This document shows positions 4,464-63,081 of a DNA stretch of 64,000 bases, piece after piece; positions within the stretch are counted from its first letter, which is position 1, and each line of letters begins with the position of its first letter. The notes under the pieces are model-generated. The model made no database searches. It was not told the origin of the DNA and saw only the letters and a list, made by a program, of their open reading frames with translations. The position numbers were made by a program, and so were the translations under genes. The stretch is from Patescibacteria group bacterium (GTDB taxonomy: Bacteria; Patescibacteriota; Minisyncoccia; Minisyncoccales; UBA10102): positions 83,891 to 147,890 of the forward strand of contig JADFNM010000001.1 in assembly GCA_022563395.1 (NCBI GenBank), in the 5' to 3' direction.

Positions 4464-5318
4464 ATGAAAGTTACTCTGATTGTTCTAGTGTTCCTGGGGG
4501 CAAGCTTTATCGCCCCAGTCCTTTGGAGCGAAGTTCTTTTTAGCCCCTCTTTGGAGCTTGCTTTCTTTGATGTTGGGCAAGGAGACGCCATATTCTTTGA
4601 AACGCCACAGGGCCACCAGGTTCTCATTGATGGAGGACCGGATGCGAAGGTTCTTTTAAGGCTTGGAGAGGTTATGCCCTTTTGGGATAAGACCATCGAT
4701 CTTGTTGTTTTAACTCATCCCGATGCAGATCATGTTGCGGGATTGGTGAATGTGCTTTTGAGCTATGAGGTTAAGAATGTTCTCTGGACCGGCAAGAGAA
4801 AGGATACCAAGGTATTTAAGGCTTTTGAGAAGGCCTTGAAAAAAGAGGGCACGCAAGAGATTCTGGCTAAAGCAGGACAAAGAATTGTGTTTGAGGGATC
4901 TGAAGCCGTGCTTGAGATTCTGTATCCAGAGCAGGGAATTGATATTCAGAAAGAAAAGAGCAACGAAACCTCTATTATTGCAAGATTAGTATATGGAGAG
5001 CACGAAGTCCTTCTTTTGGGAGACACGACAAAGAAGATAGAGAAAAGGGTGGTTAAAGCAGAAAGTGAGCTTGTAGCTGATATTCTGAAGATTGCTCATC
5101 ATGGTTCCAAAACCTCAACTGCCCGGGAGCTTTTGGGGGCGGTGGGACCTTCTACCGCGATCATTTCCGTTGGCAAGGATAATAGATTTGGACATCCACA
5201 TCCAGAAGTTCTTGCGAATTTGGCGGAATATGGTATAAAAGTACGCAGAACAGACCAAGAGGGTACTATTCTATTTTATTTCCCCCTACCTAAATTCCAT
5301 TCAGGTGGGGATAACTAA
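4464..5318 (+). CDS. ComEC/Rec2-related metallo-beta-lactamase domain protein
   Basis: N-terminal anchor, then MBL motifs LTHPDADHVAGL and AHHGSKTS as in the ComEC C-terminal domain. Confidence 0.8.
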   Translation: MKVTLIVLVFLGASFIAPVLWSEVLFSPSLELAFFDVGQGDAIFFETPQGHQVLIDGGPDAKVLLRLGEVMPFWDKTIDLVVLTHPDADHVAGLVNVLLSYEVKNVLWTGKRKDTKVFKAFEKALKKEGTQEILAKAGQRIVFEGSEAVLEILYPEQGIDIQKEKSNETSIIARLVYGEHEVLLLGDTTKKIEKRVVKAESELVADILKIAHHGSKTSTARELLGAVGPSTAIISVGKDNRFGHPHPEVLANLAEYGIKVRRTDQEGTILFYFPLPKFHSGGDN

Positions 5319-5379
5319 ATAGAATTTAAGCAAATACGATTATATTTTTATTTGTGTGTTGCCTAAATGAGATTTAGGC
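5315..5379 (+). repeat. Two X2-type hairpin units of the intergenic repeat family
   Basis: CTAAATAGAATTTAAGCAAA lies at 5315-5334 and overlaps the stop codon. GCCTAAATGAGATTTAGGC lies at 5361-5379. Confidence 0.7.
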
Positions 5380-5392
5380 AGAATGGATTATC

Positions 5393-6487
5393 ATGGAGCA
5401 ACCAAACGCAGGGAAAATTGAATTCCCGCTTTTTAAAACGAAAATCGTAGGGCTTGACCGAACATTTAATCTTACCAGCCCTCAAGAGCAAAAGGAGTAT
5501 TTTGAAGCAAAAGCAGGAGAGGAGATTGCGAAGCTTCAAAAGTACCTTTCTTTAAATACCTTCATTGCGTATTTTCTTGGTAAAAAAAATGCCGGCAAAG
5601 GAACATATTCAAAAATGTTTGCTGAACTTGTTGGCCCAGAACGTATCTCTCACGTTGCCATAGGAGACATCGTACGAGATCTAGATAGCGTTATTCAGGA
5701 TCCTGCGAGAAAGAAAGAACTCCTCACCTTTCTTGAAAAGTCTTATCGGGGATGGGTTTCTCTTGATGATATTATCTCAAGCCTTGAAAACCGGAGTACC
5801 CAATCCCTTCTTCCAACCGAACTTATTTTAGCTCTTGTAAAGAAGGAAATAGCAAAAAGAGAGAAGAAGGCGATTTTTCTTGACGGATTTCCACGTACGT
5901 TGGATCAAATTTCATATTCCTTGTTCTTTCGCGACCTGGTTGGGTACCGAGACGACCCAGACTTTTTCACCCTCATTGATGTGCCTACAAGCGTGATTGA
6001 TGAGAGAATTAAATGGCGAAGAATATGCCCCGTGGACCAAACTTCAAGAAACCTAAAACTTCTTTCAACGCTTAAGGTAGGATACAAAGAAGATACAAAA
6101 GAATTTTATCTTATCTGTGATCATCCAAATCATGGCGGCAAGGAAATTGAAATGGTACCAAAGGAGGGGGACGAGCTCGGCACAGGGCCCATCAAAGCAC
6201 GTTTAAAGATGGATGCAAAACTCATGGAGCAGGCATTCAACTTGCATGGAATTCCGAAAATCCTATTGCGAAATACCGTACCCGTAAATGCAGCACATGA
6301 ATACATTGATGATTACGAAATTACTCCGGAGTATGTGTATGAGTGGCAAGAACAAGAGCAGAAAGTAAAAGTTCTTGAGAAGCCGTGGGTGGTTAAAGAC
6401 GATAAAGGAGTTTCTTCATATAGTCTTCTGCCTCAAGCCGTAGTGGTTTCTCTCATCAAACAAATGGTTCGGGTATTGGGATTGTGA
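5393..6487 (+). CDS. Adenylate-kinase-family protein, unusually long paralogue (364 aa)
   Basis: P-loop GKKNAGKGT, IGDIVRD and LDGFPRTLDQ match adenylate kinase motifs. It has large insertions and a C-terminal extension. Confidence 0.6.
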   Translation: MEQPNAGKIEFPLFKTKIVGLDRTFNLTSPQEQKEYFEAKAGEEIAKLQKYLSLNTFIAYFLGKKNAGKGTYSKMFAELVGPERISHVAIGDIVRDLDSVIQDPARKKELLTFLEKSYRGWVSLDDIISSLENRSTQSLLPTELILALVKKEIAKREKKAIFLDGFPRTLDQISYSLFFRDLVGYRDDPDFFTLIDVPTSVIDERIKWRRICPVDQTSRNLKLLSTLKVGYKEDTKEFYLICDHPNHGGKEIEMVPKEGDELGTGPIKARLKMDAKLMEQAFNLHGIPKILLRNTVPVNAAHEYIDDYEITPEYVYEWQEQEQKVKVLEKPWVVKDDKGVSSYSLLPQAVVVSLIKQMVRVLGL

Positions 6488-6494
6488 GGTTGAT

Positions 6495-6525
6495 TTGACG
6501 AGGTCCCTTACCTCTGTGGTACAAT
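6495..6525 (+). promoter_or_regulatory. Putative promoter TTGACG-19-TGGTACAAT with no ORF downstream
   Basis: -35 at 6495-6500 and an extended -10 TGG+TACAAT at 6517-6525. The spacer is long (19 nt). Confidence 0.4.
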
Positions 6526-6667
6526 ACAAGAAGCCCCGTTCTTCTTTTAAATTTTCCGCTATATCTTTCTTAGGAAGCTGGGCAGAGTGTGACCCGTGGG
6601 TTACACCTCACCGTGGCATCCACTTAGACCTTTGTCGGAAATATTTATAGGAGAATAGGGCGTACAG

Positions 6668-6766
6668 CCCCGCCCTCTATGCTGCCGGAATGATGTCGTT
6701 GCGTTTATTGCAAAGATGAACCAGCGCAATGATAAGTAGGTCATTCAGACGGCTTAGAGGGCGGGG
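6668..6766 (+). terminator. GC-clamped long hairpin (copy 2, with 39-nt insertion) followed by TTTTGCTTT
   Basis: It has the same arms as 4393-4452. An extra 39 nt at 6695-6733 sits in the loop, flanked by AATGAT direct repeats. Confidence 0.55.
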
Positions 6767-6804
6767 TTTTGCTTTCCGATAACTTTTTTTGTTACAATAT
6801 ACCA

Positions 6805-7368
6805 ATGAACATTTTCCCCCACATCTTAAATAGGGGACTGGCCCACGTGGTAAGATTCAGCTCTATTCCCCAGCATTTTCCAGAGAGCGTGGCAGAGCAT
6901 TCCTTTTACACCGCTTACTATGTTTCCCTGCTCTGTGATATTTTGGAAAAAGCAGACATTGAGATAAACCGAGAGAAAGCAGTCACCATGGCTTTGATTC
7001 ACGACACAGAGGAGATGTTTTCAGGCGACATCCTCACTCCATTTAAGCATTATTCAAACGAGGTAAAAGAAACCATCCAAAAGGTGAACCGCGAGGTCAT
7101 CCCTCAGGTGTATGAGGGATTGCCAAAAGACATGAAAGAGAAATACATTGCCCTCTGGAATGAAGATTCAAATGGGGAGAGTATGGAGGCAAAGATAGTA
7201 AAAGTTGCAGACAGACTATCTCTACTTTCAAAGTGTGCTGAAGAGGTAAAGGTGGGAAACGGATACTTTGAGAATATTTACGAGAGCCAGTTGAAACTAC
7301 TTAAAGATTATGATGCTTCCTGGTGGCAGAAGATAAAAGAGCAGGTCCTCCCCAAGAGTGCTGCTTAA
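6805..7368 (+). CDS. HD-domain phosphohydrolase (YfbR-like 5'-deoxynucleotidase)
   Basis: ESVAEHS...LIHDTEE...VADRLS is an HD motif set. I prefer the ATG at 6805 because TGTTACAAT lies 6 nt upstream. The ORF track starts at a TTG at 6769. Confidence 0.75.
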   Translation: MNIFPHILNRGLAHVVRFSSIPQHFPESVAEHSFYTAYYVSLLCDILEKADIEINREKAVTMALIHDTEEMFSGDILTPFKHYSNEVKETIQKVNREVIPQVYEGLPKDMKEKYIALWNEDSNGESMEAKIVKVADRLSLLSKCAEEVKVGNGYFENIYESQLKLLKDYDASWWQKIKEQVLPKSAA

Positions 7369-7380
7369 ACGAGATTTAGG
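7364..7380. repeat. X2 hairpin unit CTTAAACGAGATTTAGG shared by two convergent gene ends
   Basis: It contains the TAA stop of the + gene (7366-7368) and the TAA stop of the - gene (7365-7367). Confidence 0.75.
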
Positions 7381-8878: not shown

Positions 8879-8913
8879 GGAATGAGCCGTATCCTTAATT
8901 TCGTTAAGTTTTA

Positions 8914-9374: not shown

Positions 9375-9417
9375 GAACCTTGCCAACGCAAGAACCTTGA
9401 TTTCTAACGAAATTAGT

Positions 9418-9885
9418 ATGCCAAGAGGAAAGTTTCAAAAAAGAGTTCCCAATCCTGACCTGAAATACAGCAATGCCACAGTGGCAAAGTTTGTGAACCA
9501 CATTATGATGCGGGGCAAGAAGGCTGTTGCAAGAAAGATTGTGTACGGTGCTTTTGATATTGTAAAAGAGAAGACCAAGAAAGATCCCGTGGAGGTGTTT
9601 GAGCGTGCCCTAGAAAATGTTGCTCCCATGATTGAAGTTCGTTCAAAAAGAGTGGGGGGAGCGACCTACCAGGTTCCCGTTCAGGTAAAAGACCACCGTA
9701 AAGAATCTTTGGCCACAAGGTGGATTATTACTGCAGCCCGTTCCAAAAAAGGGAAACCCATGCAAGAGAAGTTAGCTGAAGAACTCATGGCAGCGTATAA
9801 GCGTGAAGGGGCGGCTTTCAAGAAAAAAGAAGATACGCATCGCATGGCAGAAGCAAACAGAGCATTTGCGCACTTCGCGTGGTGA
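9418..9885 (+). CDS. rpsG: 30S ribosomal protein S7
   Basis: [19 protein letters not shown]...; internal ATG of ORF 9292-9885. Confidence 0.95.
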
Positions 9886-12105: not shown

Positions 12106-12312
12106 ATGGACTTGGAAGAATTAAAACGCATACTGCAAAAAGATAAGGGAAAGATTATCATTGTTGAAAACGGAAAGCCCGTGATGATAATTCTCCCCTA
12201 CGAAAATCAGGACTTGCATCATAGCCAAGAGGAGGCAGTTGAACCTCCTTTGGAGGAAGAAGAGATGGGGCCTGTTCCTGGGGAGTTGACAATTGACGAT
12301 TTGCCGCTATAA
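12106..12312 (+). CDS. Small acidic hypothetical protein with weak Phd/YefM-like N-terminus
   Basis: MDLEELKRILQKDKGKIIIVENGKPVMIILPYENQ followed by an acidic tail. No partner toxin gene is present. Confidence 0.4.
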   Translation: MDLEELKRILQKDKGKIIIVENGKPVMIILPYENQDLHHSQEEAVEPPLEEEEMGPVPGELTIDDLPL

Positions 12313-12429
12313 TTGGAACATTGTCAATTAACGAGCAGTAGCGAGTATAATTGGAACATTGTCAATTAACGAGCAGTAGCGAGTATAATTGGAACATTGT
12401 CAATTAACGAGCAGTAGCGAGTATAATTG
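12308..12429 (+). repeat. Perfect 38-bp tandem repeat x3 plus 8-nt partial fourth copy
   Basis: The unit TATAATTGGAACATTGTCAATTAACGAGCAGTAGCGAG starts at 12308, 12346 and 12384, with a partial copy at 12422. Copy 1 overlaps the upstream stop codon. Confidence 0.95.
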
Positions 12430-14050: not shown

Positions 14051-14068
14051 CTAGAGAATTGCACTCAT

Positions 14069-14187
14069 CCTAAATGTAATTAAGGAATCCTTAGTTTCAT
14101 TTAGGAGATATGTGCAAGAATCAGTACTGCTTAAACGAGATTTAAGCAAACCAAAGAATCGCCAAACAGGCGGTTTTTTGGTAGAAT
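14069..14187 (+). repeat. Full composite intergenic repeat (palindrome A + tail + X2 + hairpin/T-tract/-10 module)
   Basis: Module A at 14069-14105, AGATATGTG at 14106-14114, CTTAAACGAGATTTAAG at 14130-14146, GGCGGTTTTTTGGTAGAAT at 14169-14187. Confidence 0.85.
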
Positions 14188-14193
14188 AAAAAT

Positions 14194-14907: not shown

Positions 14908-14949
14908 AACAGGTTCTAACGTCGTCCAGTAGGGGGGGGAGCCATTATT

Positions 14950-15083
14950 GCTTAAACGAGATTTAGGCAATATTCATTTAAATGAATGGTTCCTTAATGA
15001 AATTAAGGAGATATGCGGGAAGTCATTAGTTCTTAAACGAGATTTAAGCAAACCAGGAACCGCCCACTAAGAGCGGTTTTTGG
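14950..15083 (+). repeat. Composite intergenic repeat (X2, 16-nt palindrome, half-A + tail, X2, hairpin/T-tract)
   Basis: GCTTAAACGAGATTTAGGC at 14950-14968, ATTCATTTAAATGAAT at 14972-14987, CCTTAATGAAATTAAGG+AGATATGCG at 14992-15017, X2 at 15032-15048, and a hairpin plus T5 at 15060-15081. Confidence 0.85.
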
Positions 15084-15091
15084 TTGATGTG

Positions 15092-17993: not shown

Positions 17994-18485
17994 ATGAAAG
18001 CAACGGCAAAACTGAGGTATTTAAGAATGGCACCTCGCAAGGTTCGCATGGCGGTTGACCTCATTCGGGGAAAGAAGGTTGTGGAAGCGCAACGCCTGCT
18101 TCAATTTGCCGCAAAACATTCTGCATTGCCGGTGTTAAAAACGCTAAACTCAGCTATTGCTTCCGCAAAGAACAATTTTGAGGCGGACGTGGCCAATTTA
18201 TATATCTCCCATATTGCGGTAAACGAGGGACCAAAGTTAAAGCGATACCGCCCAAGGGCGCGGGGACAGGCCTACGAGATCCAGAAGAAGACTTCCCATC
18301 TTACCATTGTGGTAGATGAGATTGAGCAGGGTAAGACAAAGAAAGCCCTGCCTAAATCTCGTTTAGGAACTCCTAACCGAGATTTAGGCAAAACTGCAAA
18401 GCCAAGTTTTCGGCCAGTGCAGGAAACCGCAAAGCAAAAGGAACCGAGAGGAATGCAGAGAATGTTTAGAAGAAAAAGTATCTAA
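17994..18485 (+). CDS. rplV: 50S ribosomal protein L22 with about 50-aa C-terminal extension
   Basis: MKATAKLRYLRMAPRKVR...; the extension contains repeat units. Confidence 0.92.
   Translation: MKATAKLRYLRMAPRKVRMAVDLIRGKKVVEAQRLLQFAAKHSALPVLKTLNSAIASAKNNFEADVANLYISHIAVNEGPKLKRYRPRARGQAYEIQKKTSHLTIVVDEIEQGKTKKALPKSRLGTPNRDLGKTAKPSFRPVQETAKQKEPRGMQRMFRRKSI
18351..18389 (+). repeat. Two X2-type repeat units inside the rplV coding sequence
   Basis: CCTAAATCTCGTTTAGG at 18351-18367 and CCTAACCGAGATTTAGGC at 18372-18389. Translated in frame they read LPKSRLGTPNRDLGK. Confidence 0.8.
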
Positions 18486-19721: not shown

Positions 19722-19958
19722 ATGCCAAAAAGACAATTAACCGGCATTGTGGTTTCAGACAAGATGCAAAAGACTCGCGTGGTTCAGGTTGAGAGGTTAA
19801 AAACCCACCCAAAATACAAGAGGAGATACCGTTCTCATGAGAAGTATAAAGCGCATGATGAACAAAGCGAGTACCACACAGGCGATAAAGTGATTATTGA
19901 GGAGATGCGACCAATGAGCAAGGACAAGAGATGGAACATCGTGAAACGTGTAGTGTGA
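19722..19958 (+). CDS. rpsQ: 30S ribosomal protein S17
   Basis: LTGIVVSDKMQKTRVVQVER...; operon order. Confidence 0.93.
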   Translation: MPKRQLTGIVVSDKMQKTRVVQVERLKTHPKYKRRYRSHEKYKAHDEQSEYHTGDKVIIEEMRPMSKDKRWNIVKRVV

Positions 19959-20012
19959 AACCTGAAACGTGTAGTAATTTTTACGTTTCATGTTTCATGT
20001 TTTAGGAATAAC

Positions 20013-23463: not shown

Positions 23464-23519
23464 GAACCTGCAAAGCAGAACCTTGCTGCAGGAGAACCTT
23501 AATTGTAAGCGAAATTAGT

Positions 23520-23951
23520 ATGCAGATGCACACACTTACGCCAAAACACAAGAGACCTCAAAAAAGGCGCATTGGCAGGGGCGGCAAGCGCGGTACCTAT
23601 TCTGGCAGGGGCATGAAAGGGCAGAAGGCAAGAGCGGGAAACCGGCCAGCACCCGTTGTCAGAGAACTATTAAAGCGCTATCCTAAACTCAAGGGATACC
23701 GCAGAGTAAAGCGGCAGAGAAAACCCCAGTCGGTTTCTTTGGCTGTTATTGAAAAGAAGTTTTCAAAAGATGAGGTGGTTTCCCCAAAGGCCCTGGTTGC
23801 AAAAGGGCTGATTAAGCAACAAAAGAGCGGTACCCCAAAAGTAAAGATTGTGGGATTGGGCAAACTCAAGAGCGTGCTCACAATCCAAGGCTGCATCCTT
23901 TCTGCTGGCGCAAAAAAAGCCATTGAAAAGAGTGGTGGGAAAATCACATGA
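23520..23951 (+). CDS. rplO: 50S ribosomal protein L15
   Basis: RIGRGGKRGTYSGRGMKGQKAR... It follows rpsE directly, with no L30 gene between. Confidence 0.93.
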   Translation: MQMHTLTPKHKRPQKRRIGRGGKRGTYSGRGMKGQKARAGNRPAPVVRELLKRYPKLKGYRRVKRQRKPQSVSLAVIEKKFSKDEVVSPKALVAKGLIKQQKSGTPKVKIVGLGKLKSVLTIQGCILSAGAKKAIEKSGGKIT

Positions 23952-28327: not shown

Positions 28328-28331
28328 CATT

Positions 28332-28409
28332 GCCTAAATCTCATTTAAGCAATATCAATAGTGCCTAAATGAAATTAAGGATTCCTTAATTTCATTTAGG
28401 AGATATTCG
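28332..28409 (+). repeat. Intergenic repeat: reversed X2 unit + 37-nt palindrome A + tail
   Basis: GCCTAAATCTCATTTAAGC at 28332-28350, module A at 28364-28400, AGATATTCG at 28401-28409. Confidence 0.85.
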
Positions 28410-28419
28410 CTTTCGCCAT

Positions 28420-29106
28420 ATGGCTTCGCTCAAGCGCAACAGCAGTATTCTTGATTACCAGGAGTTTGTACGGCAGGTGTACGGTTTAAACAACGACCGC
28501 TACTTTAGCACTACAGACATTCTTACCCAGGTGCAGCGCTTTTGCATGCGCGGCCTTAAGGGAATCCGCAAGGGCGAGAGACAAAAGACAACACTCAATT
28601 TTTTGATTGCCCTCTGCTGGTTTATGTCTTTAATGAATCAGTTGCATATTGATCTCGCAGCTGCAACTTGGCAAAGGTTTCCCAGCCTCTGTTCATACTG
28701 CGGGAGTTGTCCGTGTGTTTGCAAAAAACAGAAGGTAAAGAAACGAAAAAGGGTTATAGCAAGAAACGGCAAGAAGCCAAAAACCATTGCAGAGTTTCAG
28801 CGCATGTTCTCTGTTATTTATCCTAAAGAGAGTAGAACCCTTGAACATGCGGGTATCCATCTGGGAGAGGAAATGGGGGAGCTGGCCGAAGCAGTGTTGG
28901 CATACCGAGGGGGAAGGAATGAAGAGGACTTTGAAAAAGTAGCTGAAGAGGGCGCAGATTTTCTTTCCTGCCTGTTTGGTGTATGTAATTCATGGGATAT
29001 TGAGGTTGCAAAGGAGCTTGCAGCAATGTTTCCTGAGAACTGCCATGTGTGCAAAAAGGCTCCATGCGAGTGTAGTTTTCAGTCCATCACCGATTTTAAG
29101 TCCTAA
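28420..29106 (+). CDS. MazG-like NTP pyrophosphohydrolase-domain protein with Cys knuckles
   Basis: HLGEEMGELAEAV...EEGADFL has MazG-type EExxE/D spacing. It carries CSYCGSCPCVC and CHVCKKAPCEC motifs. Confidence 0.55.
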   Translation: MASLKRNSSILDYQEFVRQVYGLNNDRYFSTTDILTQVQRFCMRGLKGIRKGERQKTTLNFLIALCWFMSLMNQLHIDLAAATWQRFPSLCSYCGSCPCVCKKQKVKKRKRVIARNGKKPKTIAEFQRMFSVIYPKESRTLEHAGIHLGEEMGELAEAVLAYRGGRNEEDFEKVAEEGADFLSCLFGVCNSWDIEVAKELAAMFPENCHVCKKAPCECSFQSITDFKS

Positions 29107-29145
29107 AAAGTTATTCACATTGACGAAAAATCTTAGCCAATAATT

Positions 29146-29263
29146 CCTTAATGAAATTAAGGATTCCTAAATTTCATTAAGGAGATATGCGAAGAACCAT
29201 TAGCTCCTAAACGAGATTTAAGCAAGCCAAAGAATCGCTAGGAAGGCGGTTTTTTGATAGGAT
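29146..29263 (+). repeat. Full composite intergenic repeat
   Basis: An A variant at 29146-29182, AGATATGCG at 29183-29191, CCTAAACGAGATTTAAG at 29206-29222, GGCGGTTTTTTGATAGGAT at 29245-29263. Confidence 0.85.
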
Positions 29264-29270
29264 AGAGTGG

Positions 29271-31109: not shown

Positions 31110-31189
31110 TTTTCTACAAGCATTTCATTAAGGTCTGCCTGCCGCAGGCAGGAAATATGCAAGGGAATCAGTAAAAAAAGTTATTCACA

Positions 31190-31217
31190 TTGACGAGAAA
31201 GCTTGCAAGCATATGAT
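31190..31217 (+). promoter_or_regulatory. Putative promoter TTGACG-16-TATGAT
   Basis: -35 at 31190-31195 lies inside the 26-nt direct repeat; -10 at 31212-31217. Confidence 0.5.
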
Positions 31218-35044: not shown

Positions 35045-35141
35045 AATTAAGGAATCCTTAATTTCATTTAGGAGATATGTGGAGAACCAGTAGCTCCTAA
35101 ACGAGATTTAAGCAAACCAAAGAATCGCTAGAGGGATGGTG
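35036..35141 (+). repeat. Composite intergenic repeat overlapping the alaS stop codon
   Basis: Module A at 35036-35072 includes CCT AAA TGA of alaS. AGATATGTG at 35073-35081, X2 at 35096-35112, and a degenerate third module. Confidence 0.85.
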
Positions 35142-35148
35142 ATTACTA

Positions 35149-39810: not shown

Positions 39811-39868
39811 TAAATATGAACCATTCGCTTCTCTCAGAACCATATAATTTTCGCAAATAGCTCAAATT

Positions 39869-41823: not shown

Positions 41824-41907
41824 GCTTTGCCAGAAAGACTTAGGAATCCGGCATCGCAGGCGCCTTTCTTCTCTTTGTGAGATCGGCGCTTTTCTTTTAA
41901 AAGTGAA

Positions 41908-42029
41908 GTACTCCTAAACGAGATTTAGGAGTACCTAAATCTCGTTTAGGAGATATGCAAAGCAACCACATAAACTAATAGTGCCTAAATGAAATTAAGG
42001 AATCCTTAATTTCATTTAGGAGATATGCG
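41908..42029 (+). repeat. Intergenic repeat: X2 inverted pair + palindrome A + tail
   Basis: GTACTCCTAAACGAGATTTAGGAGTAC at 41908-41934, CCTAAATCTCGTTTAGG+AGATATGCA at 41934-41959, module A at 41984-42020, AGATATGCG at 42021-42029. Confidence 0.85.
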
Positions 42030-42042
42030 CGTTTTTACTCCA

Positions 42043-42071
42043 TTGCCAAAAGACCTCATTTCAGCTAGAAT
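42043..42071 (+). promoter_or_regulatory. Promoter TTGCCA-17-TAGAAT upstream of murA
   Basis: Hexamers at 42043-42048 and 42066-42071. The ATG lies 14 nt downstream. Confidence 0.55.
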
Positions 42072-42085
42072 AGGAAAGACCAACT

Positions 42086-45677: not shown

Positions 45678-46766
45678 ATGACCCTTATTATTGTTCTGGT
45701 GAGCTTTCTTGCCTTAATCATCCTTCATGAGCTGGGACATTATCTCTTTGCCAAAAAGTACGGGGTAAAAGTGGAAGAGTTTGGCATTGGGCTGCCTCCT
45801 CGATTGATTGGCAAAAAGATAGGGGAGACCCTGTATTCTTTGAATCTTCTTCCCATAGGCGCTTTTGTAAGGCTCCAAGGGGAAGAGCAAGCCGCTGGCG
45901 GCCCCCGGAGCTTTACTGCAAAACCCATATGGCAAAGGATGGTTATTGTGGCAGCTGGCGTTGTTGCCTTTTGGCTGGTAGCTGCCCTTATCTTTACTGG
46001 GCTGGCCGTGACCAGCGGGATTCCAACTGGGATTGGGGACGAAGAGGTTCAAGGAGTGGTAAATCCCAAGGTGCAGATTTTGGGCGTGGCAAAGGATTCT
46101 CCTGCAGAAAATGCTGGCATTGAGCTGGGAGATAGTATTCTTAAGATGGAAGAGCGCGATTCTGGTGTTGTAATAGAGCCCACAAAGGTAAAGGAAGTTC
46201 AGTCTTTTACCGACAGCAGCGAGGGGAAAGAAATTATTCTTACCCTGCAGCGCGGAGAGGAAACAAGAGAGGTTGCTTTGGTGCCAAGGACAGAGCCGCC
46301 TGCCAGAGAGGGCGCCATGGGGGTTGCCTTGGTGAGAACAGCATTTGTGAAGTATGCCTGGTACGAAGCTCCCTTTCGTGCCATTGAGAGAACCGCTGTG
46401 TTGACCTATGAGATTGTGCGCAACCTCGGGGGATTGCTTGTAAACCTTGTATCTGGCAAGGGAGTACCAGCGGGAGTTGAGTTTATGGGTCCGGTGGGCA
46501 TTGTTGACTTTTTGAACAAGTCTCTTTCTTTGGGCATAGCACACTTTTTGTCCTTTTTTGCAGTTTTGGCTGTTTACCTTGCCATATTCAACGCCCTTCC
46601 CATTCCCGTGGTAGACGGGGGAAAGCTGCTATTCTTGGGGATAGAAGCTATCCGAAAAAAACCTGTTTCAGAACTTTGGGAAAAAAGAGTTTCAGCAGTG
46701 GTTTTTGCCCTCTTGATAACCTTAATGATCTGGGTAACGGTTAAAGACATCACCCGTATTTTCTAG
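45678..46766 (+). CDS. rseP: RIP metalloprotease RseP/M50 with PDZ domain
   Basis: HELGHY zinc motif, PDZ (SPAENAGIELGD), and a C-terminal NALPIPVVDGG. Confidence 0.88.
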   Translation: MTLIIVLVSFLALIILHELGHYLFAKKYGVKVEEFGIGLPPRLIGKKIGETLYSLNLLPIGAFVRLQGEEQAAGGPRSFTAKPIWQRMVIVAAGVVAFWLVAALIFTGLAVTSGIPTGIGDEEVQGVVNPKVQILGVAKDSPAENAGIELGDSILKMEERDSGVVIEPTKVKEVQSFTDSSEGKEIILTLQRGEETREVALVPRTEPPAREGAMGVALVRTAFVKYAWYEAPFRAIERTAVLTYEIVRNLGGLLVNLVSGKGVPAGVEFMGPVGIVDFLNKSLSLGIAHFLSFFAVLAVYLAIFNALPIPVVDGGKLLFLGIEAIRKKPVSELWEKRVSAVVFALLITLMIWVTVKDITRIF

Positions 46767-46784
46767 GTTTAGATTTGAATAGTT

Positions 46785-46877
46785 CTTAAACGAAATTTAA
46801 GCACCCTTAATTTCATTAAGGATATATGCGTTTATCTTAAAACAAAGAATCGCAAACAGGTGGTTTTTTGGTAAAAA
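46785..46877 (+). repeat. Rearranged composite intergenic repeat
   Basis: CTTAAACGAAATTTAAGC at 46785-46802, CCTTAATTTCATTAAGG+ATATATGCG at 46805-46830, AACAAAGAATCGC...GGTGGTTTTTTGGTAAAAA ending at 46877. Confidence 0.8.
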
Positions 46878-46883
46878 GAAGAT

Positions 46884-47621: not shown

Positions 47622-47677
47622 GAGCTAGGTTTTAACATCCCTTTAGAGGAGGGCCGGCGTCTCGCAGAGCTATTACT

Positions 47678-47765
47678 GCTTAAACGAGATTTAAGCAAAC
47701 TCACCTAAAGCGAGCGGTTCTTAAACGAAATTAAGGATTCCTTAATTTCGTTAAGGAGATATACG
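47678..47765 (+). repeat. Intergenic repeat: X2 unit + palindrome A variant + tail
   Basis: GCTTAAACGAGATTTAAGC at 47678-47696, CTTAAACGAAATTAAGGATTCCTTAATTTCGTTAAGG at 47720-47756, AGATATACG at 47757-47765. Confidence 0.85.
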
Positions 47766-47817
47766 TATAACTCTTATGGGGCTTTTCTTTTTTAAAAAAA
47801 TATGTATAGTGGAAAAT

Positions 47818-49065
47818 ATGCGGCAGTCAGAACTCTTCAGTAAAACCCAGAGGAGTCTTCCAAAAGACGAGGAAAGTACCAATGCCAAGCTCCTTTTACG
47901 CTCAGGCTTTGTGCATAAGGAAACGGCAGGAGTATACTCGTTCTTGCCTCTTGGACTTAAGGTATTGAACAACATTATTTCCATTATTCGGGAAGAGATG
48001 AATGCCATTGGGGGGCAAGAGGTCTTTTTGTCCTCGCTTCAAGGCCCTGAAGTCTGGCGCAAATCGGGAAGATGGGATGATAAGATTGTGGATGTATGGT
48101 TTAAGACCAAGCTGAAAAACGGTGGAGAGCTTGGTTTGGCAAACACACACGAGGAAGCCCTAACCGCTCTTCTTTCCCACCATGTTTCCTCGTACAAAGA
48201 TTTGCCCTTGTTGGTGTATCAATTCCAAACAAAGTTTAGGAACGAGACACGGGCAAAGAGCGGTCTCATGAGAACCCGAGAGTTTATCATGAAAGACCTT
48301 TATTCCTTTGCTCGTACCTTAAAAGAACATGAAATGCTGTATGGAAAGGTAATTGAGGCCTATAAAAAGATATTTGAACGTATTGGCATTGGAGAAAAAA
48401 CCTTGTTTACTTTTGCTTCGGGCGGAAGCTTTTCAAAATATTCTCATGAGTTTCAAACATTGTGCTCTGCGGGTGAAGATACCATTTATATATGTGGGCA
48501 CTGCAAGGTTGCAGTAAACAAGGAGATTATTAAAGAACAACCATCCTGCCCCCAGTGTGGCAATCAAGAGCTCAAAGAGGAGAGTGCAGTGGAGGTGGGC
48601 AACATCTTTGCTCTGGGCACCAAGTATGCTGAAATCTTGGGCCTTGAGTACTTAGATGAAAATGGTAAAAAAATACCCGTGGTTATGGGAAGCTATGGCA
48701 TTGGACCAGGACGCGTTATGGGCAGCGTTGTGGAACTCTTTCACGATGAGAGAGGTATGATTTGGCCCGAGTCCATAGCTCCCTTTAAGGTGCATCTTCT
48801 TTCTTTGCCTGGGGGCGAAGAAGAAAGCGATAAAGTATATAGCTCATTACAAAGAGACGGGATTAAAGTCCTATATGATGATAGGGCAAATGTATCACCC
48901 GGCGAAAAATTAGTAGATGCTGATCTCTTTGGTATTCCCTGGCGTGTCGTGGTTTCAGAAAAGACTGTTGCGGTAGATTCTGTTGAGGTAAAAAAACGAA
49001 ATGAAGAAAAAGCAGAGTTGATAAAACAAAAAGATATTGCAAAGTTTCTTGCAAAAAATACATGA
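47818..49065 (+). CDS. proS: Proline--tRNA ligase (compact, zinc-ribbon insert instead of INS domain)
   Basis: MRQSELFSKTQRSLPKDE...AGVYSFLPLG, and CGHC...CPQC. I prefer the ATG at 47818 because TATAGT lies 7 nt upstream. Confidence 0.88.
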   Translation: MRQSELFSKTQRSLPKDEESTNAKLLLRSGFVHKETAGVYSFLPLGLKVLNNIISIIREEMNAIGGQEVFLSSLQGPEVWRKSGRWDDKIVDVWFKTKLKNGGELGLANTHEEALTALLSHHVSSYKDLPLLVYQFQTKFRNETRAKSGLMRTREFIMKDLYSFARTLKEHEMLYGKVIEAYKKIFERIGIGEKTLFTFASGGSFSKYSHEFQTLCSAGEDTIYICGHCKVAVNKEIIKEQPSCPQCGNQELKEESAVEVGNIFALGTKYAEILGLEYLDENGKKIPVVMGSYGIGPGRVMGSVVELFHDERGMIWPESIAPFKVHLLSLPGGEEESDKVYSSLQRDGIKVLYDDRANVSPGEKLVDADLFGIPWRVVVSEKTVAVDSVEVKKRNEEKAELIKQKDIAKFLAKNT

Positions 49066-50124: not shown

Positions 50125-50424
50125 ATGATTGACAAAGAACAGGTTAAGCATATTGCAAAACTTGCCCGCCTCCAATTGAAAGAGGAAGAGGTTGCAGCAT
50201 ACCAACAGGATTTATCACAAATCCTAGATTATTTTGATATTTTAAAAGAAGTGAATACTGAAAACGTAGAACCCATGACCCACTCTATTCATCATGAAAA
50301 CATTATCCGGGAAGATGTTCCGCAAAGAGAAGACCCCGATGTTATCTTGCGTATGATGCAGTTGGTGCCAGCCATGAAAGATGGGTTCTTGAAGGTAAAA
50401 GAAATCTTGAAACGTGATGCATGA
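50125..50424 (+). CDS. gatC: Glu/Asp-tRNA amidotransferase subunit C
   Basis: VKHIAKLARLQLKEEE...; precedes gatA. Confidence 0.88.
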   Translation: MIDKEQVKHIAKLARLQLKEEEVAAYQQDLSQILDYFDILKEVNTENVEPMTHSIHHENIIREDVPQREDPDVILRMMQLVPAMKDGFLKVKEILKRDA

Positions 50425-51833
50425 AACCTGAAACATTGACTATTGATTCTGTTCAGCGGGGTCTGCAAAAGAAAGAGTTTTCTGCGATAGAGCTTGCCGA
50501 AAGTGCGCTTAAGGAAACAGAGAAACAGGAACCAAATCTGCATGCTTTTTTAACCTTGACTCCAGAGCTCGCGCGAGCTTCTGCTCAGGCAACAGATGAA
50601 AAAATTGCAAGGGGAGAAGAACTGCCGCCTCTTTCTGGCGTTCCTTGTTCGGTAAAGGATGCAATCTTGGTTCAAGGAATAAGGTGTACTGCAGGGTCCC
50701 GTATGCTCGATAACTATATTGCCCCATATGATGCTGCCGCAGTGAAGAAGATAAAGGAAGCAGGAGCTGTGATAATTGGGAAAACCAACATGGATGAGTT
50801 TGGGATGGGGGCTTCCACAGAAAACTCTGCTTTTGGAGCAACTCATAACCCCGCTGATTTAGAACGGGTTCCGGGCGGCAGTTCTGGAGGGTCTGCAGCA
50901 TCAGTGGCGAGCGGAGAAGCCATGCTTTCTTTAGGAGCAGATACCGGCGGCTCTATTCGGCTGCCAGCTTCCTTTTGTGGGGTTGTTGGATTAAAACCAA
51001 CCTATGGGGCAGTTTCAAGAGCTGGTATCATTGCCTTGGCTTCCTCGCTGGATCAAGTTGGGCCTTTTGCAAGAACCACGAGAGATGTACAAATCTTGTT
51101 TGAAGCTATCCGCGGGAAAGATCCGAATGATGCGACAAGCGTGGATATTCCAGGAGGCGGAAAAGAAATGAACGTTAAAGATCTTCGCATTGGGATCCCT
51201 AAAGAATACTTTGCAGAGGGATTGGATCTTAAAGTGGAAAAACTCATACGAGCTGCCGTGCAAAAGTTTGAGAAAGCTGGTGCAAAGATAGTAGAGCTTG
51301 AGCTCCCGCATACTCAGTATGCCTTGGCTGCCTATTACGTAATCAATATGTCTGAGGCATCAGCAAACCTGGCTCGGTATGATGGCATTCGCTATGGACT
51401 CCACCAAGAAGCTCCTGATCTGTTCCAAGAGTATCTTGACTCTCGAGGCACCGGTCTTGGAACTGAAGTGAAGCGCAGGATTATGCTGGGTACTTATGCC
51501 CTTTCTCAAGGATACTACGATGCCTATTACGTGAAAGCGCAAAAGGTGCGCTCTCTGTTAAAACAGGATTTTGATAGTGCATTTGCCAAGGTAGATGTGA
51601 TTATGGGACCAGTATCTCCGGTTCTGCCTTTCAAATTGGGTGAACGAACTCAAAACCCATTGGCAATGTATTTAGTTGATATTTATACTGTTCCCGTGAA
51701 TTTGGTGGGGCTGCCTGGAATTTCTCTCCCGGCAGGAAAGGTCGGTAATCTTCCTGTTGGGCTTCAGGTCATAGCCCCAGCATTTCAAGAAAACTTGCTC
51801 TTTTCTGTGGGCAAAACCCTTGAGAACCTGTAA
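50421..51833 (+). CDS. gatA: Glu/Asp-tRNA amidotransferase subunit A
   Basis: Amidase signature GGSSGGSAASVA, 470 aa. Confidence 0.94.
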   Translation: MKPETLTIDSVQRGLQKKEFSAIELAESALKETEKQEPNLHAFLTLTPELARASAQATDEKIARGEELPPLSGVPCSVKDAILVQGIRCTAGSRMLDNYIAPYDAAAVKKIKEAGAVIIGKTNMDEFGMGASTENSAFGATHNPADLERVPGGSSGGSAASVASGEAMLSLGADTGGSIRLPASFCGVVGLKPTYGAVSRAGIIALASSLDQVGPFARTTRDVQILFEAIRGKDPNDATSVDIPGGGKEMNVKDLRIGIPKEYFAEGLDLKVEKLIRAAVQKFEKAGAKIVELELPHTQYALAAYYVINMSEASANLARYDGIRYGLHQEAPDLFQEYLDSRGTGLGTEVKRRIMLGTYALSQGYYDAYYVKAQKVRSLLKQDFDSAFAKVDVIMGPVSPVLPFKLGERTQNPLAMYLVDIYTVPVNLVGLPGISLPAGKVGNLPVGLQVIAPAFQENLLFSVGKTLENL

Positions 51834-52786: not shown

Positions 52787-52813
52787 CCTAAAAACTTAAT
52801 CTCGCTTTGTTTT

Positions 52814-52860
52814 CCTTAGCAAAAACTAAGGGTGCTTTAATTTCATTTAGGAGATATGCG
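52814..52860 (+). repeat. Partial intergenic repeat (hairpin + right arm of A + tail)
   Basis: CCTTAGCAAAAACTAAGG at 52814-52831, CTTTAATTTCATTTAGG at 52835-52851, AGATATGCG at 52852-52860. Confidence 0.75.
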
Positions 52861-52958
52861 ATTCTTTACGGGTTTGACAAAACTTGTGTTTCTGGTAAAA
52901 GGTGGGTAGCACCCTCAAATCTCATACGAGGGTTGATACTTGTCTGAGGAGAGACATC

Positions 52959-54508: not shown

Positions 54509-54520
54509 ATTTCAATGGTT

Positions 54521-54566
54521 CCTAAATGAAATTAAGGATGCCTTAATCTCATTTAGGAGATATGCG
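54521..54566 (+). repeat. Intergenic repeat: palindrome A + tail
   Basis: CCTAAATGAAATTAAGGATGCCTTAATCTCATTTAGG at 54521-54557, AGATATGCG at 54558-54566. Confidence 0.85.
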
Positions 54567-54595
54567 GTTCTCATATTTTTGTGGATAACTTCCTC

Positions 54596-60437: not shown

Positions 60438-60454
60438 TTATATTTATTGGGTTT

Positions 60455-60880: not shown

Positions 60881-60888
60881 TACGCATT

Positions 60889-61467
60889 ATGATACTGTCT
60901 GACCGAGACATTAAAAAGTCCATCCAGGAAGGGAAAATCATTATGTCCCCAGCCCCCAACTATGAAGAGCAGCTGGGGCCTTGTTCTTTGGACCTTCATT
61001 TAGGTAACGTCATGAAGGTATTTAAGACCACCTCCTATCCTTATCTGGACTTAAAGCGGGAAATCAATTTTGAAGAGTTGATGGATGAAATCACGGTAAA
61101 AGAGGGGGATCCCTTTGTGTTGCAGCCGGGAGCCTTTGCCCTGGCAATAACCAGAGAGGAGTTTACTCTCCCAGACGACATCATGGGGCGCTTGGACGGC
61201 AGGAGTTCCCTTGGACGCCTTGGCATTGTGGTGCATTCCACCGCAGCCCGTTTTGACCCAGGGTGGTCAGGAAAAGCTGTCATGGAATTGGGAAACCTTG
61301 GGCCAAGTCCGGTCATCTTGTATGAGGGCATGAGAATTTGCGCCTTAACCTTTGAAACGTTAACCTCTCCTGTTGAGGAATCCTACGCCAAAAGCAGCAA
61401 GCGAAAATACTCGCACCAACAAAAACCCCAGGCAAGCAAGATAAACAAAGAATTTAGCGAAAGTTAG
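60889..61467 (+). CDS. dcd: dCTP deaminase
   Basis: MILSDRDIKK...CSLDLHLG...GRLDGRSSLGRLGI. Confidence 0.88.
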   Translation: MILSDRDIKKSIQEGKIIMSPAPNYEEQLGPCSLDLHLGNVMKVFKTTSYPYLDLKREINFEELMDEITVKEGDPFVLQPGAFALAITREEFTLPDDIMGRLDGRSSLGRLGIVVHSTAARFDPGWSGKAVMELGNLGPSPVILYEGMRICALTFETLTSPVEESYAKSSKRKYSHQQKPQASKINKEFSES

Positions 61468-62420
61468 GTCGACTTTTTGACCTCCTCCTTTTCATACAGT
61501 CCTCCTGCCACCGTGAGTTCTCCCTTGATGGCAGGGTAGGGATCGTAGTTTTCCAATGATACAAGATCTGGATGGAAATCATCCAGCTCTTTTATTTTAG
61601 GATCCAATATAACGTGCGGGAAAGGTCTTGGTTCTCTTTTTAGTTGTTCTTTGACCTGTTCAACATGATTCTCATAAATGTGGGCATCTCCAAAAGTATG
61701 TATAAATTCACCAGGTTTCACCCCCAGGATTTGGGCTAATACTTTTGTAAGCAAAGCATAGCTTGCAATATTAAATGGGACTCCTAAAAAGAGATCAGCT
61801 GATCTCTGATAGAGTTGAAGATAGAGTTTCCCACCTTTCAAGGATATTTGATACATATTGTGGCAAATAGGAAAACGGGAAGCATCCTCTTCTTGCGCCA
61901 TTGTATAGAGGTATTCGGGGTTCCATGAGGTAACAATGGCATTCCGAGCAAAGGGGTCTTCTTTAAGCTCATCTACAATCCATTGAAGTTGGTCTATAGT
62001 ATCGCCTCGTTTGGTGGGCCATTTTCTCCACATCTCCCCATATATTCGAGGAAGTTCTCCATGTTCTTTCGCAAATTCTTGGTCCTGTGCGATTTTGGCG
62101 ATGAATTCTTCTTTGGAAAGTTCTGGAACACCCTGTTTTTGGGAGTAAATCTTGTAGGGATAATCATCCCAGATATGAACATTGTTGTCTACTAAGTATT
62201 TAATGTTGGTTTGGCCAGTCAAGAACCAATAAAGCTCATGGAGAACCCCTTTCCAGTACACTTTCTTAGTGGTTAAAAGAGGAAATCCCTCTGTAAGGTC
62301 ATAGCGGATTTGCCTGCCAAACACACTCCAGGATTTGGCTCCAGTACCCCTGTCTACGTTTTCTGTGCCTTTCTCAAGGACCTCTTTGAGCAAGTTGAGA
62401 TATTGGTATTCCGGATGCAT
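61464..62420 (-). CDS. thyA: Thymidylate synthase (ThyA)
   Basis: YLNLLKEVLEKG...DRTG-like, LPICHNMYQ (catalytic Cys), DAHIYENH. I chose the ATG at 62420 because TATAGT lies 6 nt upstream. Confidence 0.92.
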   Translation of the reverse strand: MHPEYQYLNLLKEVLEKGTENVDRGTGAKSWSVFGRQIRYDLTEGFPLLTTKKVYWKGVLHELYWFLTGQTNIKYLVDNNVHIWDDYPYKIYSQKQGVPELSKEEFIAKIAQDQEFAKEHGELPRIYGEMWRKWPTKRGDTIDQLQWIVDELKEDPFARNAIVTSWNPEYLYTMAQEEDASRFPICHNMYQISLKGGKLYLQLYQRSADLFLGVPFNIASYALLTKVLAQILGVKPGEFIHTFGDAHIYENHVEQVKEQLKREPRPFPHVILDPKIKELDDFHPDLVSLENYDPYPAIKGELTVAGGLYEKEEVKKST

Positions 62421-62426
62421 TATGAT

Positions 62427-62456
62427 ACTATAGCAGAGACAAATAATGCGGGTCAA
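62427..62456 (-). promoter_or_regulatory. thyA promoter TTGACC-18-TATAGT, 6 nt before ATG (minus strand)
   Basis: -35 at 62451-62456 abuts the repeat tail; -10 at 62427-62432. Confidence 0.5.
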
Positions 62457-62498
62457 TATCTCCTAAATGAAATTAAGAAATCCTAAATTTCGTTTAAG
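62456..62498. repeat. Intergenic repeat units in the divergent thyA/folA spacer
   Basis: ATATCT+CCTAAATGAAATTAAG at 62456-62477 is the tail plus half-A in reverse, facing thyA. CCTAAATTTCGTTTAAG at 62482-62498 faces folA. Confidence 0.75.
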
Positions 62499-62507
62499 CA
62501 ACCAACA

Positions 62508-63029
62508 ATGACAACTTTTATTATAGCAGCCCTTACTGCAGATGGCTTTATTGGGAAAGATTCTACCCACTCGCCCTTAACTTGGAGGAGCGAGGGTGAT
62601 AGGAAGTTTTTTATTGAGCGTACCAAACAAGCTGGTCTCGCCATTATGGGATTGAACACGGCAAAAACGTCAAAACGACCCCTTCCAGGTCGCCGCAATA
62701 TTATTTATGCTGACAACAAAGATCAGTTGCTTCACTGGCAAGAATATGGAGAGTGGGAAATAACCCAGGATAACCCAAAAGAGTTGCTTTCTCGTCTTAA
62801 AAAAGATGGACACAAAGAAATTGCCATCTGCGGAGGAGCTACCATCTACACCATGTTCATGGAACAGAACCTCGTGGATAAACTCTATTTGAGCATTGAG
62901 CCAGTGTTATTCGGAAAAGGCATTACCCTGTTTAACAAAGAATTAGATACAAAGCTTCAACTTAAAAACGTATCAAAATTAGGCGAGCAGACAATTTTAC
63001 TAGAATATAACGTGCTAAAACTTCGTTAA
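62508..63029 (+). CDS. folA: Dihydrofolate reductase-family protein
   Basis: IIAALTADGFIG..., GGATIY; 173 aa; divergent from thyA. Confidence 0.75.
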   Translation: MTTFIIAALTADGFIGKDSTHSPLTWRSEGDRKFFIERTKQAGLAIMGLNTAKTSKRPLPGRRNIIYADNKDQLLHWQEYGEWEITQDNPKELLSRLKKDGHKEIAICGGATIYTMFMEQNLVDKLYLSIEPVLFGKGITLFNKELDTKLQLKNVSKLGEQTILLEYNVLKLR

Positions 63030-63038
63030 ACGAATTCT

Positions 63039-63081
63039 GCTTAAATCTTGTTTAGGTGCGGATAACTAAATGAGATTTAAG
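63039..63081 (+). repeat. Two X2-type hairpin units
   Basis: GCTTAAATCTTGTTTAGG at 63039-63056 and CTAAATGAGATTTAAG at 63066-63081. Confidence 0.7.

Follow-up and report, generated by a model that had tools for sequence, protein, structure and literature searches.

Short nested palindromes between the genes of a Parcubacteria chromosome: a lineage-restricted repeat family, possibly of the REP/BIME kind

The repetitive extragenic palindromes (REP) and bacterial interspersed mosaic elements (BIME) of enterobacteria and the REPINs (REP doublets that form hairpins) of Pseudomonas are short, imperfect intergenic palindromes with many near-identical copies per genome, found as singles, as inverted doublets whose two units can pair into a single long hairpin, and as mosaics in which the linkers are fixed. 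BIMEs combine REP subtypes in alternating orientation and are bound by IHF, gyrase or Pol I. All have a conserved unpaired head beside the stem and a species-specific consensus, and they often lie at the 3' ends of genes; in REP and REPIN systems the same genome holds a cognate single-copy gene for a RAYT, a Y1 HUH transposase, which is itself flanked by REPs. The genomes of Patescibacteria, or Candidate Phyla Radiation (CPR) bacteria, are regarded as streamlined and repeat-poor. Here we analyse a stretch of 64,000 nucleotides from a Patescibacteria group bacterium (contig JADFNM010000001.1, positions 83,891 to 147,890; hereafter the window), in which a dense family of hairpin-forming repeats lies between the genes. 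Its copies have the arrangement, head and setting that describe REP and BIME, and we consider it an evenly balanced proposition that they represent a lineage-specific REP/BIME-like (REPIN-like) family of nested palindromes in a Parcubacteria chromosome. They differ from the described families in being AT-rich, with a 6-bp stem and a 5-nt loop, in a mosaic that takes in a terminator and a promoter, in one copy that is coding (in rplV), and in their host, a CPR bacterium with a reduced genome.

A second comparison is offered by the pneumococcal BOX and RUP repeats and the Correia elements of Neisseria, which resemble miniature inverted-repeat transposable elements (MITEs). Like the repeats described here, they are modular and intergenic, are predicted to fold into stable RNA hairpins and can bring promoter or terminator signals with them, but there is no sequence similarity, and our units are much shorter (17-25 nt). 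The first-pass annotation of the window had proposed a modular, hairpin-forming intergenic family of BOX/REP/BIME type outside the catalogued elements, a proposal that is supported by enrichment, orientation, compensatory changes and the lack of an Rfam match.

Units, numbers and orientation

The basic module is about 25 nt long and consists of a short head of about 8 nt and a 17-nt hairpin with the consensus CYTWAA-YGARA-TTWARG, which folds into a 6-bp stem and a 5-nt YGARA loop. Two forms of the hairpin, X1 (CCTAAATGAAATTAAGG) and X2 (CYTAAACGAGATTTARGC), have 19 and 17 matches in the window with up to 2 mismatches, against 0.02 expected for each from dinucleotide-preserving shuffles, and a generic pattern (CYTWAAYGARATTWARG, likewise with up to 2 mismatches) recovers 37 non-redundant units at 17 loci (Table 1), equivalent to 0.6 units per kb. 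Almost all of them (34 of 37) are intergenic or overlap only a stop codon (binomial P ~1e-31 against a non-coding share of 9.6%), confirming the dense palindromic family between genes that had been annotated. By a tally of element coordinates, the elements account for roughly a fifth of the intergenic DNA (~1.3 of 6.1 kb), and copies within the window differ at only 0-2 of 17 nt.

The seven full palindromes, the half copies and the five composites listed in the first-pass annotation were all found where it had placed them, as were its single and inverted X2 units. Among its degenerate traces, 8893-8909 is a one-mismatch unit and 31121-31172 a partial copy, in which a partial reverse X1 (X1rev) is followed by a GC-rich hairpin of another kind and by a tail-like AAATATGCAAGG. 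Of the three sites that it had called possible, 39811-39830 gave no match; the other two, 9398-9417 and 23500-23519, are not clear members of the family and belong to a separate two-copy 31-nt repeat (AGAACCTTRATT...CGAAATTAGTATGC, 84% identical, at 9391-9421 and 23493-23523), whose last bases are the ATG start codons of rpsG and rplO. Overlaps of units with stop codons, also claimed there, hold at 7366 and 35042, and that near 5316 extends further, repeat sequence at 5289-5331 making up the last ~10 codons and the stop of the MBL-fold gene. In three genes the stop or the final codons consist of element sequence, which is what insertion at the ends of genes would produce. The earlier list lacked one locus, an inverted X2 pair within the rplV (L22) open reading frame (18351-18388).

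An assembly artefact is ruled out, since independently assembled contigs of at least six samples contain the same elements. Short-read contigs of the source organism often break inside elements. A scan of the window with the Rfam covariance models at the gathering score returned 4 tRNAs only, and in E-value mode four element loci gave only chance miRNA or snoRNA matches with E above 3. BLAST searches of phages and plasmids and a pattern scan of viral contigs yielded no match to the family, and in the literature we found no paper on such REP-like repeats in CPR bacteria. When genome contigs were scanned with the 17-mer CCTWAATGAAATTWAGG, at least 120 chance matches showed the query to be too unspecific; among metagenome contigs, a 20-mer spanning X1rev and the tail had 10 matches, in none of which the family was present. 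A rumen metagenome-assembled genome, uncultured bacterium RUG13580 (30% GC; contigs L037, L039, L069, L081, L096, L102 and L116), has a repeated hairpin of its own upstream of genes (CTCCTTAATGAAATTAAGGAG), whose core is identical to the perfect X1 variant; this genome is unrelated, and the likeness probably reflects convergence.

Modules stand singly, as inverted head-to-head doublets 3 nt apart (AWT), or in mosaics with an ordinary terminator and promoter, where the recurrent order is X2, X1 doublet, tail, X2, terminator, with conserved linkers. The head has the approximate consensus CAWTAKYT (versions ATTAGCT, AATAGTG and CATTATTG), the head of inverted units is the reverse complement of the tail (CGCATATCT, CATATCT), and the tail itself, AGATATGYG, is found on 13 doublet or half elements. 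The window holds ten X1-type or hybrid doublets and one X2 doublet, with a phasing fixed at 20 bp, and a doublet can fold in two ways, into two small hairpins or into one 17-bp hairpin. When ten doublets of the window were aligned over 57 nt with three of the sister species, 88.5% of cells are paired and 5 pairs are changed on both sides in the two-hairpin fold, compared with 91.4% and 6 in the single hairpin; support for the two is about equal, and each beats nearly all column shuffles and all slid registers. Forty single units show 90% pairing, with UA/AU, CG/UA and AU/GC alternatives, and the predicted RNA folds of composites reach z-scores of -4 to -10.

Dyad symmetry in each unit, the occurrence of either orientation without consequence for function, and the fixed 20-bp phasing of doublets would also be expected of duplex sites for an abundant dimeric DNA-binding protein, putatively nucleoid-associated or a global regulator, whose half-sites (CCTWAA) would lie 11 bp apart centre to centre and of which two dimers would sit on the same helix face of a doublet. 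Many copies do lie just upstream of promoters (murA, pheS, pyrF, rpsL and the thyA/DHFR divergent region), but their distance to the -35 box ranges from overlapping to more than 200 nt, and ~17 loci per 64 kb are far above a specific regulon. Moreover, the arms co-vary between copies and species (UA/AU/GC), which base pairing predicts and independent half-sites do not, and adjacent units in one sister species (L143) have quite different stems, making such binding sites an unlikely explanation.

CPR bacteria depend on competence machinery, and the DNA-uptake sequences (DUS) of Neisseria often form inverted pairs between genes, so that species-specific uptake sequences come to mind as well. DUS and the uptake signal sequences (USS) of Pasteurellaceae share with the present family a high density, species-specific 'dialects' and frequent inverted pairs, and our copies are homogeneous within the genome while those of sister species differ. 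Yet DUS and USS are fixed 9-12-nt duplex words that are common inside genes too, whereas here pairing is constrained, the covariation of the hairpins speaks against a fixed duplex word, and genes contain hardly any copies even though each strand leaves one reading frame open. Uptake would also leave the conserved asymmetric tail and head unexplained, and we hold this account to be extremely improbable.

A covariance model of doublet plus tail (R1) detects 13 tailed elements in the window, 12 on the + strand and one on the - strand (62449-62505, upstream of thyA), and scores one orientation ~20 bits above the other at each locus. Every tail faces the next gene, so that the annotated rule, including its thyA case, applies to 13 of 13 elements. 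Twelve of the 13 thus share one strand on the leading-strand sequence, which serves as template for the lagging strand, and this is compatible with mechanisms acting on single-strand hairpins. Genes and replication are co-oriented in the window, and therefore only the thyA case separates a gene-linked from a replication-linked orientation.

The third module of the composites, annotated as a small GC hairpin with a T-tract, does recur, but it proved to be an ordinary intrinsic terminator, with a -10 box and the ATG behind it. The A-tract CCAAAGAAUCGCC forms one arm and GGCGGUUUUUUGG the other around the GC hairpin, and a T-run follows. The hairpin has 12-14 bp in four of five folded cassettes, the fifth (at 35029) having a decayed 8-bp stem and no T-run. 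In three cassettes (before the SDR, LMF1-like and dapF genes) homology reaches through a TGnTAGAAT-like -10 box to the ATG, and therefore a complete intergenic cassette of ~125 nt is repeated there. The terminator after rpsJ is also found in the outgroup L144, without hairpin units, and thus appears to be an older component than these. We rejected several other roles for parts of the cassette. The tail as Shine-Dalgarno motif plus start codon would have a spacing of 2-3 nt, and mini-ORFs starting at the tail ATG differ in length and sequence; since Shine-Dalgarno-like motifs upstream of window genes are at background (10/68, against 18% in random windows) and TAnAAT boxes lie close to the ATG, the AGGAG of the tail is unlikely to be a ribosome-binding site. 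Neither tail nor doublet has the consistent -10/-35 boxes of a sigma-70 promoter, and an attenuator pairing TTTAGGAG/CTCCTAAA between X1rev and X2 is available in only two of five cassettes. In several window genes a TAnAAT box stands 6-9 nt ahead of the ATG, which suggests leaderless or very short-leader mRNAs for this subset.

Named homologues of the window's AlaRS come from Parcubacteria, Wildermuthbacteria and Paceibacterota, the best match being Parcubacteria bacterium Greene0714_21 (74% identity); the host of the repeats is a Parcubacteria (Patescibacteria/CPR) chromosome, and its genome is reduced. The window covers the str/S10/spc/alpha ribosomal-protein region and housekeeping genes, among them a short AlaRS, TIM, MurA, MreB, PheST, GyrB, NusG and ThyA. 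Nearly every gene lies on the + strand, GC skew is positive throughout, and the coding fraction in the curated gene list is 90.4%, leaving 9.6% non-coding.

Table 1. Elements of the repeat family (positions in the window)
Position	Strand	Composition	Setting
5286-5392	+	Composite: reverse X2-like 5289-5305, degenerate X2 5315-5331, X2 5362-5378	First unit in last codons of MBL-fold gene, second with its TAA stop, third 14 nt ahead of next ATG
7364-7380	+	Single X2 unit	Over stop codon of YfbR-like HD gene
8893-8909	-	Single degenerate unit, 1 mismatch	Just upstream of rpsL promoter-like TTGACA
14062-14193	+	Full cassette: X1 doublet + tail 14062-14118, X2 14130-14146, intrinsic terminator ~14148-14182, TGGTAGAAT -10 box	rpsJ-SDR gap, ATG 14194
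14944-15085	+	Cassette: X2 14951-14967, small hairpin, single X1 + tail 14992-15017, X2 15032-15048, terminator ~15050-15083	After SDR gene
18351-18388		Inverted X2 pair	Within rplV (L22), coding for LPKSRLGTPNRDLGK
28330-28413	+	Reverse X2 28333-28349, perfect X1 doublet/tail 28357-28413	10 nt before MazG-like gene
29139-29270	+	Full cassette: X1 doublet + tail, X2 29206-29222, terminator, TGATAGGAT -10 box	Before LMF1-like gene, ATG 29271
31118-31175	+	Degenerate: partial X1rev, different GC-rich hairpin (CTGCCTGCCGCAGGCAGG; type also at L137:5580-5605), tail-like AAATATGCAAGGGAATCAGTA	
35029-35145	+	Cassette: perfect X1 doublet, tail, X2 35096-35112, decayed terminator	AlaRS 3' end; first X1 unit contains last two codons + TGA stop
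41906-42033	+	X2 doublet + tail 41906-41963, perfect X1 doublet + tail 41977-42033	Upstream of murA promoter (TTGCCA-N17-TAGAAT)
46778-46883	+	Hybrid doublet (X2 + X1rev), tail, terminator, -10 box	dapF ATG 46884
47672-47769	+	X2 47679-47695, X1-type doublet + tail 47713-47769	10 nt before class-II aminoacyl-tRNA synthetase (aaRS) gene
52808-52864	+	Variant hairpin (CCTTAGCAAAAACTAAGG) + X1rev + tail	Between tRNA-Asp and pyrF promoter
54514-54570	+	X1 doublet + tail	Between canonical terminator and pheS promoter (TTGATT-N17-TAAAAT)
62449-62505	-	Sole minus-strand doublet + tail	thyA/DHFR-like divergent region; tail abuts TTG start of thyA
63037-63094	+	Reverse X2 + X2-like unit; 74% identical to 5286-5343	Just ahead of dCTP-deaminase-like gene

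Related species and the copy in rplV

Syntenic contigs of relatives were collected through AlaRS and L22 homologues. By AlaRS identity, L142 (87%), L137 (83%) and L143 (81%) are sister species, and L138 and L144 (both 77%) and L140 (74%) are outgroups, which together contributed ~64 kb of syntenic DNA. R1 matches are confined to the window, L137 and L143, with none in the outgroup DNA, and generic CY..RG hairpins, present at 0.28 per kb in the window, are at the shuffle level of 0.05 per kb in the outgroups. The site at the 3' end of AlaRS is empty in L138 and L140, where a conserved promoter (TATTGATGAATTTCTYGATTTAMTCTAGAATAGGA) follows within a few bases of the stop; in the window the same promoter lies ~100 nt downstream, with the element between the AlaRS stop and the promoter. 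A hairpin-free version of the tail motif is found upstream of murA in L137 and L138, and in L138 also before the conserved AAAAAGTTATTCAC promoter.

In the sister species, the arrangement hairpin-AWT-hairpin-AGATATGYG is kept at orthologous sites, namely the AlaRS 3' end and the regions upstream of murA and of the MazG-like gene, with stems that differ, for example GG/CC in place of AA/TT. L143 has ACTTAGTGAGATTAAGG-AAT-CCTTAATTTCGTTCAGG-AGGTATGTGG at the AlaRS 3' end and CCTTAACGAGATTAAGG-ATT-CCTTGGTTTCACCAGGG-AGATATGCG upstream of murA, L137 has a full cassette of CCTTAGCTAGACTAAGG doublets and an X2-like CCTAGGCGAGACTTGGG before the MazG-like gene, and the L142 contig ends with CTTAGGCTAGCTAAG directly at the AlaRS stop. 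The window is denser than its sisters (six loci versus two in the same syntenic stretch), and its copies are much more homogeneous. As far as these contigs allow us to judge, the family originated after the split from the L138 lineage; several species have since retained its sites but replaced its stems.

An architecture kept at orthologous sites with compensatory changes would also be expected if the units were functional RNA hairpins that stop 3'-5' exonucleases, label sites of processing or are recognised by an RNA-binding protein, and that spread with cassette duplication when genes were gained. In line with this, orientation tracks the gene, the minus-strand case at thyA included, in five cassettes the hairpins come after the stop codon but ahead of a canonical terminator and so would be transcribed, and stems in sister species are G-U-compatible on the sense strand (CCTAGG/CTTGGG in L137, CCTTGG/CCAGGG in L143). 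Within the window, however, sense-strand G-U pairs (3) are not above A-C mismatches (4), both unit orientations occur, which would present different RNA loops (YGARA and UYUCR), and no Rfam family matches. Several copies would be poorly transcribed, because at murA and pheS the doublet sits past the upstream terminator and ahead of the downstream promoter, and because the thyA/DHFR and 466-aa/murA divergent regions receive no read-through from a gene upstream. On balance, we find a dedicated RNA function doubtful, if by no means far-fetched.

The inverted pair in rplV encodes LPKSRLGTPNRDLGK in the C-terminal extension of L22, X2 providing the codons for PKRDLGK. Its first unit is the exact reverse complement of X2 in the window, which suggests gene conversion between dispersed copies and rplV. 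The homologous L22 residues of relatives read ALPKxxxGxPKRDLGKT; in L145 (90% identical) the DNA for PKRDLGK, CCTAAACGAGATTTAGGCAAAAC (L145:535-557), is a perfect X2, and the outgroup L144 already has two adjacent hairpin-like units, CCTAAACCTGGTTTAGG-AGTG-CCTAAGCGAGACTTGGA (L144:10364-10401), yet no intergenic family. Rickettsia palindromic elements (RPE) likewise comprise palindromic repeats that are translated, as those of the window are in the L22 tail and at the C-termini of AlaRS and the MBL-fold protein. Unlike RPE, the L22 segment is ancestral in relatives without the intergenic family, and since these possess the homologous residues and DNA, and L144 the hairpin-like pair, we rejected a recent RPE-like in-frame insertion. 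The rplV segment is then either the relic of an early element, caught in the gene ahead of the family's expansion, or the seed from which the family grew. Together with the position-conserved architecture in sister species, the ancestral rplV copy indicates that the family is not merely a recent burst.

Copying, mobility and gene gain

We infer that the family spread, and acquired its homogeneity, through DNA-level copying within the genome. Copying may have proceeded by hairpin-directed single-strand transposition, with a trans-acting enzyme that would be encoded elsewhere in the genome, by gene conversion and duplication of whole intergenic cassettes, or by both. Once settled in 3' untranslated regions and between transcription units, the hairpins would act passively as RNA or single-stranded-DNA stem-loops.

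Several observations weigh against a REP-like nature. The head, approximately CAWTAKYT or AGATATGYG, is not the GTAG of classical REPs, which is present in one copy only. Pfam scans of the proteins of the 64-kb window found neither a Y1/HUH enzyme (RAYT, PF01797-like) nor any other transposase, a further difference from REP and REPIN systems. At the filled and empty AlaRS sites no target-site duplication is recognisable, and the terminal inverted repeats with such a duplication that would mark a MITE of the Correia or RUP kind are not visible there either. Among same-species contigs, which represent at least six samples, no element varies in presence or absence or contains a single-nucleotide polymorphism (SNP); most alignments of these contigs are 99.3-99.9% identical, one 2.7-kb stretch of L151 being 97.8%, and the test is weak because the strains are for the most part only 0.1-0.7% diverged (2.2% over that stretch). 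The orientation of the thyA element, the sole informative case, follows gene direction and favours a constraint linked to transcription or RNA over one linked to replication. Finally, sister species keep the positions of elements while their stems change in a compensatory manner, which could point to an organism-level function rather than to selfish spread. Across window, relatives and same-species contigs, we found no evidence for current mobility of the family.

One exception to the uniformity of the same-species contigs is L136 (L136:210-235; two samples), which lacks 79 nt of the window, 41995-42073, comprising half an X1 doublet and the murA promoter. The deletion breakpoints share the microhomology GAAA; as an excision of the element it would be imprecise, and we rejected that interpretation. 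The MazG-like 228-aa gene flanked by doublets was dismissed as a cognate enzyme, having only weak MazG similarity and being no transposase. TIGR-Tas arrays, which have been reported in CPR bacteria, consist of tandem ~36-nt units with box C/D motifs and spacers beside a gene for Tas, a Nop-domain protein (PMC12045711); the elements of the window are dispersed rather than tandem, and the same Pfam scans found no Tas-like gene in it.

Four genes that are absent from relatives are flanked by elements on both sides: an SDR gene between rpsJ and rplC, and MazG-like, LMF1-like and formyltransferase genes between an RNase H-like gene and mnmA. In a tally of junctions, elements are present at 5 of 6 accessory-gene junctions, compared with 3 of 14 conserved junctions with a spacer of more than 40 nt. 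The SDR gene lies between direct copies of tail-X2-terminator, and a 30-nt direct repeat (AAAAAGTTATTCACATTGACGA..., 29105-29134 and 31175-31204) brackets a 2,070-bp segment with one cassette and the LMF1-like gene. In L137 and L138, which lack the LMF1-like gene, the 30-mer is single-copy, and the segment has the appearance of an inserted or duplicated gene with direct repeats at its borders.

The bracketing of accessory genes raises the question whether the elements are portable recombination or integration sites, such that accessory genes enter with a cassette that recombines with a resident one, as a transposase-free analogue of integron cassettes. The attC sites of integrons (e.g. the Vibrio cholerae repeats) are indeed similar in conserving structure over sequence, in their single orientation, in their location at gene boundaries and in their homogeneity within a genome. 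However, the aligned elements have no R'/R'' core sites (RYYYAAC ... GTTRRRY), no integrase was found among the window proteins, the elements are dispersed rather than arranged in a contiguous array, and cassettes here carry promoters. Flanking genes are, moreover, mostly essential and syntenic (AlaRS, murA, pheS), and with few junctions sampled, the association could mirror where intergenic space exists. We consider integration sites of this kind very unlikely, and give slightly more credit, though still little, to a combined scenario in which the modules are recombination handles of transposase-free gene capture and the family descends from, or exchanges with, the rplV hairpin pair.

Neighbouring features and significance

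Other repeats and structured motifs were seen alongside the family. Two copies of a strongly structured motif (4390-4455 and 6665-6769) lie directly upstream of the MBL-fold gene and the gene for the YfbR-like 5'-deoxynucleotidase; a long stem CCCCGCCCUCUA...UAGAGGGCGGGG surrounds a conserved internal hairpin, the second copy having an extra inserted hairpin, and with RNA fold z-scores of -6.7 and -7.4 and no Rfam match it is possibly a riboswitch-like leader. Upstream of tuf, a perfect 38-nt tandem repeat (TATAATTGGAACATTGTCAATTAACGAGCAGTAGCGAG, ~3.2 copies, 12308-12429) consists of promoter-like units (TTGTCA ... TATAAT), and the same-species contig L001 is 100 nt longer here, so that copy number varies between strains. 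The motif GAAACGTG / GAAACCTGAAACGTG, 72% identical over 50 nt, occurs upstream of rplN (19938-19987) and across the gatC stop and the first codons of an amidase (GatA-like) gene (50404-50453), and is possibly a protein-binding site. A GC-rich structured element of ~105 nt (GGGGAGATTGGGTATCTCCCC ... GCGAATCCGCCTTAGGCGGAG) is common to L143:7300-7400, after rpsI, and L144:6640-6745, after rpsJ; it is absent from the window and may be a different mobile or non-coding RNA element. Among same-species contigs, the class-II aaRS gene (47776-49065) has a 37-nt deletion in L153 and L154, which splits the open reading frame, and a 75-nt insertion in L151 (indel positions 48579-48617 and ~48920-48942), and dense SNP clusters are found at 46236-46472 and 51500-51577.

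If the repeats are of the REP/BIME type, a known kind of element occurs in a phylum for which we found no earlier description in the literature, and there it takes up about a fifth of scarce intergenic DNA. On the practical side, the repeats fragment short-read assemblies of the source organism. Their position-conserved architecture, combined with stem turnover across species, provides a tractable case of concerted evolution, and the identity of a unit with codons of an essential ribosomal protein gene is a rare clue to the origin of a repeat. The association of elements with accessory-gene junctions links the family to gene gain. A cognate enzyme or binding protein, if found, would show in what way a minimal genome lives with such elements or puts them to use.

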